From: Escherichia phage 121Q
Direction: 5' to 3' (one strand)
Length of the DNA stretch: 64,000 nt
Sequence record: NC_025447.1
The notes below the pieces were generated by a model. It worked only from the letters and a program-made list of their open reading frames with translations. It did not search any database and was not told the origin of the DNA. The position numbers and the translations under genes are program-made. Positions 10,016-11,453 of the stretch are shown one piece after another. How positions within the stretch are numbered: position 1 is the stretch's first letter; every line of letters starts with the position of its first letter.

Positions 10016-10191
10016 CACATGAAGAGTGGATGAAACGCCAAAAATTAAAGTGGAATCCTTATTATCTACCATTAGATTCTAGAATGTGGGATGTTATACG
10101 TATCAAGTGCATGTACAAAGCATATTTAAGTACTGAACTCGACGAAGAAGTACTGATGCATATCGTGCACCGATGATAAAAAAAGCTTGAC
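10012..10191 (+). CDS. small protein, MTHEEW family
   Basis: 59-codon ORF MTHEEWMKRQKLKW... Confidence 0.4.
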
Positions 10192-10215
10192 TAAATAGTT
10201 CAGTACTGTATAATG
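10188..10215 (+). promoter_or_regulatory. sigma70-like early promoter (TTGACT - 16 nt - TATAAT)
   Basis: Consensus hexamers; spacer contains CAGTACTG; upstream of ORF 10246. Confidence 0.5.
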
Positions 10216-10245
10216 TTTGTATCTTAACTTATATGGCAACTTGAT

Positions 10246-10599
10246 ATGTTTAGTGAATATGAAGAAGCAATAAAACGCAACCTTGAAGATTATAAATTCC
10301 AATTTTATATTTGGGATAAACTGATGAGATTGTGTTTACAGTGGATGGAAAATGAAGAAACTCCTGACCAACGAACTGTTATATTAAACATCTTGTTACA
10401 TAAAGATCTTAGTTCAATTAATATTGAAGTTTCTACTTATGTAGGAGAAGATTATAATCCCTATATTTCATATACTTCCCCTGTACCAAAGACAGAAGAA
10501 GAATATTTTCAAATGAGTACTGTACAAGAACCATTGTTCACTTATGAGTTCTATAAGTACTTGGTTGGTGAATTCAAAAAAATGCGAATTAATTCTTGA
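10246..10599 (+). CDS. hypothetical protein, EExFFQxST-motif family
   Basis: ORF track; product contains EEEYFQMSTV. Confidence 0.45.
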   Translation: MFSEYEEAIKRNLEDYKFQFYIWDKLMRLCLQWMENEETPDQRTVILNILLHKDLSSINIEVSTYVGEDYNPYISYTSPVPKTEEEYFQMSTVQEPLFTYEFYKYLVGEFKKMRINS

Positions 10600-10627
10600 C
10601 TAAATAATTCAGTACTGAGGATATTAA
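10596..10627 (+). promoter_or_regulatory. sigma70-like promoter variant (TTGACT ... TATTAAT)
   Basis: Same TTGACTAAATAxTTCAGTACTG core as neighbouring promoters. Confidence 0.4.
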
Positions 10628-10665
10628 TATGTTTAAAGATGAACGTCCAGATTTGTAAAAAGTAC

Positions 10666-10694
10666 TTGACTAAATAGTTCAGTACTGATATAAT
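10666..10694 (+). promoter_or_regulatory. sigma70-like early promoter (TTGACT - 17 nt - TATAAT)
   Basis: GTACTTGACTAAATAGTTCAGTACTGATATAAT, identical to the copy at 11421-11453. Confidence 0.5.
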
Positions 10695-10699
10695 GAATT

Positions 10700-11040
10700 C
10701 CACAATCAGACGTATATGGTGTAAGCTACGTCGATGCAATCCAGAACAAGATCTCTGGTACTCTAGGAAGTGGTGAATGTTAACCTAGACGGGTTTGATA
10801 ATTGGACGATAGGCAATTATTACTTGACTAGCAGGTTGAAACTAGAGGTGACAGTCCTTCACCAAACTGGAAAACCGGATGGACTTTTATTTAAAAGGGT
10901 AAGGCGTGGAAATATGTTTACAGAAGTTGCTTTTAGTAGCCTGTACGCCCCACGACAAGGTAGCCGAAAGGTAAGTTAAAACGGGTGGTTATAAAGCTGA
11001 ATTAACAGCGGCGTTTAAAAGCGTCACCATCCATTTTTTT
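10700..11040 (+). ncRNA. candidate structured non-coding RNA (unclassified)
   Basis: About 340 nt with no ORF, GC-richer than flanks, just downstream of a consensus promoter; GNRA-type hairpins (e.g. CCGAAAGG); ends in a T-run. Confidence 0.25.
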
Positions 11041-11056
11041 AATTAAAGTTGGCGAT

Positions 11057-11428
11057 ATGAGTGTTAAAGACATTTCAAAGTATGAAGAGTTTCTTAAATC
11101 ATTTTTGAATTCAAAATTAACGACAGACCATACCAATAACTGGTGTAAAGATAATCCTGGAATTCGCATTTTCAAGGAATATGGTGAATCATTTCTTATA
11201 AATGACGATGTAATTGTTTTTGAATCATTTGAAGAAATAAAAAGGACAAATAACACTTTACGTGATATAATAAATAGTATAAATTCTCAATACATTACCT
11301 TCCAGCTAAGTGCTGATGAAGAAGATGAATTTCAGAAACGTACAGTATATGAAAATGTGTTCCCACATGAATTAAATTCTGTGATAATTAAAGTGTTGGA
11401 TAAGGTTTTTTCTGAAAATAGTACTTGA
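11057..11428 (+). CDS. hypothetical protein, EExFFQxST-motif family
   Basis: ORF track; product contains EEDEFQKRTV. Confidence 0.45.
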   Translation: MSVKDISKYEEFLKSFLNSKLTTDHTNNWCKDNPGIRIFKEYGESFLINDDVIVFESFEEIKRTNNTLRDIINSINSQYITFQLSADEEDEFQKRTVYENVFPHELNSVIIKVLDKVFSENST

Positions 11429-11453
11429 CTAAATAGTTCAGTACTGATATAAT
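11425..11453 (+). promoter_or_regulatory. sigma70-like early promoter (TTGACT - 17 nt - TATAAT)
   Basis: Consensus hexamers immediately upstream of the tRNA cluster. Confidence 0.5.

Follow-up and report, generated by a model that had tools for sequence, protein, structure and literature searches.

Promoter-like repeats in the tRNA island of Escherichia phage 121Q carry an AGTACT palindrome that recurs across RaK2-like jumbo phages

Introduction

Why a phage should keep several near-identical promoters, alike not only in their hexamers but also in the spacer between them, is the question raised by the transfer RNA (tRNA) island of Escherichia phage 121Q. The DNA analysed here, referred to below as the window, is a stretch of 64,000 nucleotides (nt) of this phage (sequence record NC_025447.1), for which a preliminary description had ascribed the likeness of the promoters either to recent duplication or to an extra recognition element in the spacer. 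The explanation proposed in the following, which is held to be reasonably probable, is that the repeats are paralogous early promoters used by the host sigma-70 RNA polymerase, that the palindrome CAGTACTG on the -10 side of their spacer is a functional element maintained throughout the clade, and that its AGTACT core has a common reader.

With a G+C content of 34%, the window comes from an Asteriusvirus-like (RaK2-like) Escherichia coli jumbo phage; a 4-kb query around the repeats is 90-96% identical to Escherichia jumbo phages of the group of PBECO4, 121Q, phAPEC6 and slurp01 (Asteriusvirus, about 350 kb). Nearly all genes of the window up to about 53 kb are carried by the + strand, and the repeats are located inside the tRNA island. 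Strong early promoters that recur in a phage tRNA region are of a known kind; the palindromic element is specific to the clade and previously undescribed, neither the class of promoters with two AGTACT sites nor the genome-wide excess of AGTACT being mentioned in the literature searched, which included promoter studies of Asteriusvirus and Alcyoneusvirus.

Sequence and architecture of the promoter copies

The pattern TTGACTAAATA(G/A)TTCAGTACTG occurs four times in the window, always on the + strand (at 10187, 10596, 10666 and 11425), where 0.01 occurrences are expected by chance. Its 22-nt core TTGACTAAATAGTTCAGTACTG is exact at 10187-10208, 10666-10687 and 11425-11446 and has one mismatch (G to A) at 10596-10617; none of 100 shuffled sequences contained four occurrences of the core. 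The four units are as follows.

10177-10214, + strand: promoter copy 1, with an A-tract at 10177-10184, the -35 hexamer TTGACT at 10187-10192, a 16-nt spacer and the -10 hexamer TATAAT at 10209-10214
10596-10625, + strand: copy 2, degenerate, with TTGACT at 10596-10601 and CAGTACTG at 10610-10617, and without a proper -10 hexamer
10654-10694, + strand: promoter copy 3, with an A-tract, AGTACT at 10661-10666 overlapping the -35 hexamer TTGACT at 10666-10671, and the -10 hexamer TATAAT at 10689-10694
11413-11453, + strand: promoter copy 4, with AGTACT at 11420-11425, the -35 hexamer TTGACT at 11425-11430, AGTACT at 11440-11445, the extended -10 motif TGn and the -10 hexamer TATAAT at 11448-11453

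The -35 hexamer matches the consensus at five of six positions in all four copies, and copies 1, 3 and 4, which match it at 11 of 12 positions over both hexamers, are the top-scoring promoter-like sites of the region; the best scan score for copy 2 is 9/12 (GATATT, 18-nt spacer). In copy 1, which is also present in slurp01, ph0011 and phAPEC6, CAGTACTG occupies 10201-10208 of the spacer and meets the hexamer in the junction CTG-TATAAT. In copies 3 and 4 the spacer is 17 nt long and ends in a canonical TGn extended -10 (CTGA-TATAAT), with TG at -15/-14 (TGATATAAT); in copy 3, AGTACT at 10681-10686 lies inside the 10-bp palindrome TCAGTACTGA (10679-10688). Together with A-tracts at about -44 to -40, which may act as UP elements, copies 3 and 4 thus contain every element of a T4-type early promoter (A-tract, -35, TGn and -10), plus a conserved CAGTAC and an upstream AGTAC. 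Given the canonical form of these elements, their strand bias and their placement before each module, copies 1, 3 and 4 are assigned, from their sequence, to the sigma-70 type. The predicted cassette consists of an A-rich UP-like tract, the -35 hexamer TTGACT, a spacer of 16 or 17 nt, TGn and the -10 hexamer TATAAT, and every module of the tRNA and small-RNA island would be transcribed from a cassette of its own, except that copy 2 has since decayed. The open reading frame (ORF), RNA or tRNA downstream of each copy follows at a distance of 10-35 nt.

Over 34 nt, copy 3 (10661-10694) and copy 4 (11420-11453) do not differ, and 41 of 44 positions are alike over 10654-10697. The corresponding 33-mer with a GTAC prefix occurs only twice, at 10662-10694 and 11421-11453, the prefix being absent from copies 1 and 2 (GCTTGACT and TTCTTGACT). 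The preliminary description had reported four near-identical promoters around the tRNA island, the first at 10188 and the last two identical over 33 bp, with GTAC as part of the shared sequence. The four copies and the identity of the last two, now one nucleotide longer, are borne out; the first copy starts at 10187, GTAC is a property of copies 3 and 4, and only copies 1, 3 and 4 are intact promoters, copy 2 having no usable -10 hexamer. In copy 2, CAGTACTG is followed by AGGATATTAATATG, which comprises a Shine-Dalgarno-like GAGGA and an ORF remnant of 9 codons (10629-10658). Two copies overlap the end of the preceding gene, the TGA within TTGACT serving as the stop codon of ORF 10246-10599 in copy 2 (10597-10599) and of ORF 11057-11428 in copy 4 (11426-11428).

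Sites of the form TTGAC-N15-19-TAnnnT number 37 on the + strand of the window, which holds nearly all genes where they lie, and 0 on the - strand. The mean spacer identity among the 27 other promoter-like sites of the window is 29%, so the spacer conservation of the copies is far above the background, as the preliminary description had supposed.

A mobile repeat akin to repetitive extragenic palindromic sequences or miniature inverted-repeat transposable elements was considered and rejected, the unit ending exactly at the promoter boundaries and always lying upstream of, and co-oriented with, genes. Operators for LexA or TrpR were likewise rejected on visual inspection: TACTGTATA is similar to one half of an SOS box and GTACT to a half-site of the trp operator, and the partner halves are absent in every copy. 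A further pair of AGTACT sites 20 bp apart (AGTACTGAACTCGACGAAGAAGTACTGATGCAT), at 10129-10154, falls within ORF 10012-10176 at its 3' end, a short way ahead of copy 1, and may be a decayed promoter copy.

Duplication and recombination among the copies

The repeat is present in two to five copies per genome, all within the tRNA island. No exact match to the 22-mer was found in the viral sequence database IMG/VR, which indicates that the precise repeat is confined to close relatives, and among these its surroundings have been rearranged repeatedly. In ph0011, copy 2 is intact and duplicates copy 1, TATAAT and 13 nt beyond the -10 hexamer included, and it heads a 79-amino-acid ORF that the window lacks; an extra module of promoter and tRNA-Ser, as well as a homing endonuclease gene, is inserted ahead of copy 4. 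In phAPEC6, copies 2 and 3 are fused, the upstream flank of the former running directly into the downstream flank of the latter. There, all but about the first 35 nt of RNA-A, the structured RNA that follows copy 3 in the window, is deleted, the RNA query matching over its nt 1-37 alone. The tRNA-Ser promoter of slurp01 reads AGTACTGGACAATAGTTTTCAGTACTGATATAAT, with another -35 hexamer and another -35-side spacer and with TTCAGTACTGATATAAT unchanged. The copies thus act as recombination joints between modules, and the occurrence of fused, extra or replaced copies in relatives marks the 34-nt identity of copies 3 and 4 as a recent, lineage-specific event.

These rearrangements suggest that the identity of the -35-side spacer (AAATAGTT) and of the flanks reflects recent duplication, module shuffling and recombination between copies. 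Whether duplication alone explains the repeats, the spacer having been kept because the copies are young and not because it is functional, is a different matter. The 34-nt identity, the -35-side spacer AAATA(G/A)TT that copies 1 to 4 have in common, and the variable copy number and junctions in relatives, which imply fast turnover, would fit such a view. It is contradicted for the -10 side of the spacer, where the element is kept despite unrelated -35-side spacers and flanks in the window and in three genera, and also at the orthologous tRNA-Ser promoter of RaK2, a genome otherwise unalignable with the window. Duplication as the sole cause is therefore highly improbable, and the CAGTACTG element is probably much older than the duplications. 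The proposal of recent duplication made in the preliminary description accordingly holds for the -35-side spacer and the flanks, and fails for CAGTACTG.

A class of AGTACT promoters in RaK2-like phages

The older age of the element is illustrated by three promoters elsewhere in the window, which serve ordinary ORFs and have only (C/T)AGTACTG-TATAAT in common with the four copies.

28615-28642, + strand: promoter with TTGACA, 8 nt, CAGTACTG and TATAAT, heading ORF 28689
32925-32952, + strand: promoter with TTGACA, 8 nt, TAGTACTG and TATAAT, heading the ORF that starts at 33000
43510-43537, + strand: promoter with TTGACA, 8 nt, CAGTACTG and TATAAT, heading ORF 43585

In these three, as in copy 1, TG directly abuts the -10 hexamer (TGTATAAT) and does not form TGn. 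The combination CAGTACTG-N0-1-TATAAT is found five times on the + strand of the window and never on the - strand, although the palindrome itself fits either strand.

The same arrangement extends to Klebsiella phages. The tRNA island of RaK2 (Alcyoneusvirus) contains five or six promoters of the form AAAAAAGTGTTGAACAAAAAGTTCAGTACTGATATAAT, and its tRNA-Ser promoter, orthologous to copy 4, retains GTTCAGTACTGATATAAT; the alignable sequence between the window and the 40-kb region around the RaK2 tRNA island amounts to 372 nt (E<=1e-30), which correspond to the region of the two non-coding segments RNA-A and RNA-B. In the 20-kb terminal repeat of Klebsiella phage Muenster, at least 21 pairs of AGTACT are spaced by exactly 20 bp, each just upstream of a small coding sequence, and the promoters take the form AAAAGTAC-TTGnnn-N8-CAGTACTG-(N)-TATAAT or CATAAT; many combine a weak -35 hexamer (TTGCAT, TTGCTT or TTGTAT) with an invariant CAGTACTG. 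In dozens of Muenster and RaK2 promoters, CAGTACTG begins exactly 8 nt past the -35 hexamer and ends 0-1 nt ahead of the -10 hexamer. Counted with a single regular expression on the + and - strands, promoters of the class number 31:5 in 39 kb of Muenster, 17:1, 9:1, 3:0 and 2:0 in four regions of RaK2, and 6:0 in the window; a few also occur in two metagenomic contigs of about 370 kb, and the E. coli sample has none.

An anchored alignment of 27 class promoters yielded 1.6-2.6 bits per position for CAGTACTG and 1.1-2.3 bits for the upstream AGTAC, compared with 1.6-2.5 bits for the TTG of the -35 hexamer and 0.4-0.9 bits for its last three positions; the palindrome is constrained at least as strongly as the -35 hexamer. 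The geometry is fixed: TCAGTACTGA forms a perfect 10-bp palindrome at -22 to -13 and the second AGTACT lies at -40 to -35, so that the two sites bracket the -35 hexamer at a centre-to-centre distance of 20 bp, or two helical turns. A palindrome in a constant position that overlaps polymerase contacts is what an operator for a dimeric regulator would look like. In 596 Gb of bacterial genomes this double-site pattern occurs at about the chance level, with 95 single matches spread over unrelated taxa, which argues against a host regulon with this architecture. The IMG/VR contigs with several matches are, with one exception (a 109-kb contig with three matches), jumbo genomes of about 350 kb, including RaK2 and the Yersinia phage fHe-Yen9-04. 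Taken together, CAGTACTG and the AGTAC(T) abutting the -35 hexamer appear, on sequence grounds, to define a class of early promoters in RaK2-like jumbo phages. The extra spacer element anticipated in the preliminary description is thus supported by its presence in promoters throughout the clade; it is not particular to the tRNA island, and its core is abundant outside promoters.

Early promoters have been described in several related phages. The early region of CBB is marked by predicted RpoD-like promoters with UP-like elements, and RNA sequencing of PA5oct placed TTGAC/TATAATA motifs at transcript starts; a second promoter type, TGAAACG plus TATA, has been proposed in relatives. The early promoters of CBB, GAP32 and PA5oct resemble the present class in belonging to the same clade and in their TTGACA and TATAAT hexamers, UP-like element and association with regions of short early ORFs. 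The published list of RpoD-like promoters of CBB, however, shows ordinary, unrelated spacers without the AGTACT element. The early promoters of T4 are likewise built from elements of the UP, -35, TGn and -10 types and contain additional consensus regions of unexplained role (Hinton 2010, PMC2988021). They resemble the promoters described here in their use by host sigma-70 polymerase straight after infection (a feature that we infer for the latter), in near-consensus -35, TGn and -10 elements, in A-rich upstream tracts and in extra conserved positions outside the canonical elements. They differ in that the extra element here is a discrete 8-bp palindrome whose position in the spacer is fixed and which is usually accompanied by a copy abutting the -35 hexamer, and in that its core is massively over-represented genome-wide, nothing comparable being reported for T4.

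Excess and retention of AGTACT throughout the genome

AGTACT is the most over-represented hexamer of the window, with 184 copies where 22, 19 and 35 are expected under models of order 0, 1 and 2, respectively, and CAGTACTG occurs 38 times where 0.6 occurrences are expected. Maximal-order Markov k-mer statistics hid this excess because all sub-words of AGTACT are enriched as well, and lower-order models and dinucleotide shuffles were used instead. The core is hugely over-represented outside promoters too. It is evenly spread, at 7-16 copies per 4 kb, in the block transcribed from the - strand as elsewhere, and is distributed over the three reading frames (65, 34 and 49 copies) and intergenic DNA (36 copies). 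Its flanks are symmetric: the base at -1 is C in 45% and G in only 10% of the sites, and that at +1 is G in 46%.

Short palindromes are normally avoided by phages, and no other 6-bp palindrome of the window exceeds its expectation more than 2.3-fold. CCATGG, CAGCTG, AGGCCT, AGCGCT and CGATCG are absent where about 5.7 copies of each are expected; these missing palindromes look like ordinary restriction-site avoidance, in contrast to the excess of AGTACT.

The excess is 9-30-fold, and AGTACT the top hexamer, in every RaK2-like locus sampled from Asteriusvirus, Alcyoneusvirus, Eneladusvirus and two metagenomic contigs, the loci including those of RaK2, Serratia phage BF, Muenster and phAPEC6. 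The density is highest, at about 6.5-8 sites per kb, where RaK2 and Muenster are rich in promoters. No enrichment is seen in E. coli K-12 (0.6-fold; 3 sites where 5 are expected in 50 kb) or in a T4-like phage locus (0.9-fold), and AGTACT is about 50-100 times denser in these genomes than in the E. coli sample. About a thousand AGTACT (ScaI) sites are to be expected per phage genome.

The sites are also lost more slowly than others. Between the window and phAPEC6, 149 of 160 AGTACT sites are kept (93%); the rate is 86% for other hexamers (p=0.006) and 85.5% for those of equal composition (p=0.005). The corresponding values for slurp01 are 23 of 25 and 72% (p=0.025). Between relatives, AGTACT is thus lost at about half the rate of other hexamers. 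An excess of this kind points to an unrecognised function at the level of DNA, such as packaging, protection, self-marking or modification.

Proposed mechanism and the case for host polymerase alone

In the mechanism proposed here, CAGTACTG (about -21 to -14) would be a functional promoter element that also supplies the TG of the extended -10, and the second AGTAC(T), abutting the -35 hexamer, would be functional likewise. The AGTACT core would be positively selected throughout the genomes, with one reader recognizing every site. Such a common reader is suggested by the symmetry of the element, its duplicate 20 bp upstream and the genome-wide selection for AGTACT; it could be a protein that binds DNA as a dimer and perhaps arrives with the virion, or else a modification specific to the sequence. 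In the promoters, whose -35 hexamer is bracketed by the sites, the reader would switch or tune initiation by the sigma-70 polymerase.

The main rival to this explanation is that the element optimizes contacts of the host polymerase directly and that no extra factor is involved: the TG and a deformable TpA step at -18/-17 would both come from CAGTACTG, a proximal UP element would be formed by the upstream AAAAGTAC, the whole would be a very strong promoter for the unmodified host enzyme, as in T4, and the excess of AGTACT would be a separate matter. The 11/12 consensus match of three copies, the TGn of copies 3 and 4 and the A-tracts at about -44 to -40 agree with this view, and the T4 early promoters also show extra consensus regions without a known role (PMC2988021), for which better contacts with host polymerase have likewise been proposed. 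The class promoters of Muenster, moreover, lie in its terminal repeat; if this repeat enters the cell ahead of all other DNA, a position deduced by analogy with T5, its promoters would fire before any phage protein had been produced. Such a view leaves unexplained, however, the perfect palindrome, the recurrence of the hexamer 20 bp upstream, and the 9-30-fold excess with preferential retention in coding DNA; in addition, the commoner form, with a 16-nt spacer, has its TG one position off the canonical extended -10. The direct optimization of host contacts is consequently considered unlikely, although it keeps a real share of the probability.

Several observations weigh against the proposed mechanism. 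All promoter calls are based on consensus matches. TG lies at -14/-13 in the members with a 16-nt spacer, which is not the canonical extended -10 position, and a flexible TpA-centred sequence at -18/-17 could, together with TG, aid the host polymerase unaided. The class is small in Asteriusvirus, with six intact promoters and the degenerate copy 2 out of 37 promoter-like sites. The conservation effect is modest (odds ratio about 2.2), the genome-wide excess and the promoter element may have different causes, and Pfam revealed no obvious sequence-specific regulator among 40 ORFs of the window.

Candidate readers of the element

The phage encodes a sigma factor of its own, which raises the possibility that this protein reads the promoters.

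25267-26232, + strand: phage sigma-70-family factor with regions 2, 3 and 4 (Pfam Sigma70_r2, Sigma70_r3 and Sigma70_r4)

In E. coli sigma-70, residues W433, W434, Q437 and T440 contact the -10 element, and H455 and E458 contact the TG motif. In the HMMER alignment with RpoD, the equivalent of ATWWIRQAITRS...IPVHMIE in the phage protein reads ASSSIYMTVYNE...FPRYMSV, with SS, M and Y in place of W433/W434, Q437 and T440, and Y and V in place of H455 and E458. Since the residues that read the -10 element and TG are missing from the phage factor, the host sigma factor is the likely reader of the TGnTATAAT promoters, and the phage factor probably recognizes a different promoter type. The view that the phage sigma uses CAGTACTG as its specificity element could draw on the three conserved regions of the protein and on the many Muenster promoters in which weak -35 hexamers accompany an invariant CAGTACTG. 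It is nevertheless very unlikely: the -10 hexamer is the consensus TATAAT that the phage factor seems unequipped to read, the class is densest in the terminal repeat of Muenster, ahead of the small ORFs typical of the earliest genes, and the second promoter type proposed for relatives has another motif, TGAAACG plus TATA.

Host SlmA, the nucleoid-occlusion protein, was considered as well. Its 12-bp site GTGAGTACTCAC has AGTACT at its centre and requires G, T and a purine at positions 1-3 on either side of the core (PMC3020112). SlmA sites, which are read by a dimeric helix-turn-helix protein, are like the phage sites in being palindromes with an AGTACT core that are scattered over the genome beyond promoters; unlike them, they number tens per chromosome, compared with the thousand or so expected per phage genome, and they require different flanks. 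The idea that the phage genome captures or activates SlmA through sites such as TTCAGTACTGAA gains from the identical core and from the fact that the known hosts of these phages are all Enterobacterales. It is scarcely credible, however, given that the phage sites favour C beside the core, with G in only 10%, that GTRAGYRCTYAC occurs neither in the window nor in the RaK2 locus, and that RAGTACTY is found 18 times as opposed to 91 occurrences of YAGTACTR. SlmA was rejected as reader for these reasons, its required flanks differing and no full site being present.

A modification of the DNA is another way in which AGTACT could be read. In this alternative, the hexamer would be the target of a phage methyltransferase or base-modifying enzyme, and the modification state of the two promoter sites would be an epigenetic switch, fully modified virion DNA differing from newly replicated DNA so that the promoters would be confined to the infecting genome, or excluded from it. 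Relatives encode two or three DNA methyltransferases whose specificity is not established (RaK2 paper; Sharanji paper), and the DNA of RaK2 is resistant to many restriction enzymes (RaK2 paper). Short palindromes are typical methyltransferase targets, and the AGTACT site appears in a methylome study of giant eukaryotic viruses. Protective methylation does not, however, predict a 9-30-fold enrichment of its target, and Pfam found no DNA methyltransferase among the 40 ORFs of the window, so that this alternative appears decidedly unlikely. Nor did Pfam detect an Alt-like ADP-ribosyltransferase among these 40 ORFs, genes outside the window not having been searched; the domains above the cutoff were limited to the sigma factor, a CapR-domain protein, an AAA ATPase, a DenV-like glycosylase and RCC1-repeat proteins.

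Returning to a protein reader of AGTACT, the virions of phAPEC6 contain an inner body embedded in DNA and package proteins encoded in this region, namely RCC1-repeat proteins, gp035c, gp037c, gp077 and gp078c. Injected, DNA-bound proteins are therefore conceivable, if purely speculative, candidates. At least six paralogous RCC1-repeat proteins are encoded at 53089-63797 on the - strand of the window, their phAPEC6 homologues being virion 'DNA condensation proteins', and the genes are separated by repeated intergenic hairpins (GCCAGTA...TACTGGC) containing AGTACTGG.

Precedents exist for a short site that lies both at early promoters and at many other places of a phage genome and is read by one phage protein. 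One is the set of about 30 stoperators in the genome of a cluster A mycobacteriophage, which lack symmetry and point in the direction of transcription. Another is TF1 of SPO1, which has sites at early promoters and recognizes DNA containing hydroxymethyluracil.

Transcripts of the tRNA island

The tRNA genes and non-coding RNAs of the island are the following.

8682: tRNA-Gly
9491: tRNA-Ser(UGA)
9585-9663: an extra tRNA (Rfam, 32.6 bits) that ARAGORN does not detect and that is tRNA-Arg(TCT) in the slurp01 annotation
10699-10884, + strand: RNA-A, an unannotated conserved structured RNA downstream of copy 3, with a closing stem of UCCA (10699-10702) and UGGA (10880-10883)
10898-11040, + strand: RNA-B, a second conserved non-coding segment, with a terminator hairpin GGGTGGT (10983-10989) ... 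ACCATCC and a T-run at 11034-11040
11464-11802, + strand: tRNA operon of copy 4, with tRNA-Ser(ACU) at 11464-11555, tRNA-Met at 11563-11637, a 90-nt gap and tRNA-Asn at 11728-11802
13896: tRNA-Thr

Copy 1 precedes ORF 10246-10599 (117 amino acids). Copy 3 precedes about 340 nt of non-coding DNA that ends in a long hairpin and T-run (10983-11040), after which comes ORF 11057-11428; this ORF is without a promoter of its own and would be expressed from copy 3 by read-through. The -10 hexamer of copy 4 ends 10 nt upstream of the mature tRNA-Ser(ACU), which places the predicted start only about 3-4 nt before the mature tRNA.

A search of the region with Rfam, at the gathering thresholds and at E<=10, returned tRNAs only and no match in the 340-nt stretch after copy 3, so that no known RNA family accounts for the transcript of this copy. 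RNA-A (about 185 nt) is 80-99% identical across Asteriusvirus and Alcyoneusvirus, has homologues of 86-92% identity in the tRNA arrays of T4-like Bragavirus phages (in the gap between tRNA-Gly and tRNA-Asp) and of a T5-like Proteus phage, and has a diverged copy in Aeromonas phage 65; it is missing from phAPEC6, G17 and Sharanji. Its consensus fold, obtained by comparative analysis, shows compensatory pairs; the thermodynamic fold alone is uninformative (z = -1.07). RNA-B, whose terminator is a long two-part hairpin, is found alone, without RNA-A, in phage JNE01, and so moves independently. In RaK2, RNA-A and RNA-B are separated by a promoter copy, and a terminator module of the RNA-B type, with compensatory changes in its stem, follows tRNA-Ser (20140-20200 of the RaK2 locus).

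Further observations concern the tRNAs and their neighbours. Small paralogous ORFs starting with MTHEEW are interleaved with the tRNAs at 8099-10176 and include a tandem duplication of 161 bp (9690-9850 and 9851-10011, 82% identity). The anticodon of tRNA-Ser(ACU), at 11464-11555, is unusual in having A at the wobble position, and relatives encode a tRNA adenosine deaminase; the other tRNA-Ser (UGA) occupies 9491-9580. The two match the top Ser codons of the ORFs in the window, TCA (411) and AGT (403, 31% of Ser), the latter being also the first half of AGTACT.

Two other promoter-like arrangements were observed in the window. Eight near-identical GGGTTGACTTCGGTCAGCCCTTTTTGCTATAAT units, at 34698, 37939, 38122, 39699, 40784, 45279, 46561 and 48729, constitute a second promoter style in which the -35 hexamer lies within a terminator stem-loop and the T-run of the terminator forms the spacer; the unit is listed in phage CBB only as a terminator. 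At 28963-29065, a promoter with GTACTGA just past its -35 hexamer drives only a hairpin of about 60 nt with a T-run (gggaatgcagtg...cgttcccgccctttt), just ahead of ORF 29086, and the transcript may be a small RNA or a leader.

Conclusions

RaK2-group jumbo phages are being collected rapidly for therapy, and most of their early genes are without an assigned function. The promoter class described here permits the earliest genes to be annotated from sequence alone, and its fixed palindromic element provides a handle for finding the regulator of the early programme. The promoters are also compact, strong and modular parts, each of which naturally drives its own tRNA or small-RNA cassette.

Beyond promoters, AGTACT/CAGTACTG may be a genome-wide 'self' signal of RaK2-like jumbo phages, read by a protein, possibly one injected from the inner body, or by DNA modification; this proposal is a tentative one, with the balance somewhat against it. 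If it is correct, about a thousand selected sites would organize or mark the phage DNA, and the pairs that bracket the -35 hexamer would place the earliest promoters under the control of the same reader, which would represent a new mechanism joining the marking of a genome to a temporal switch in its transcription.

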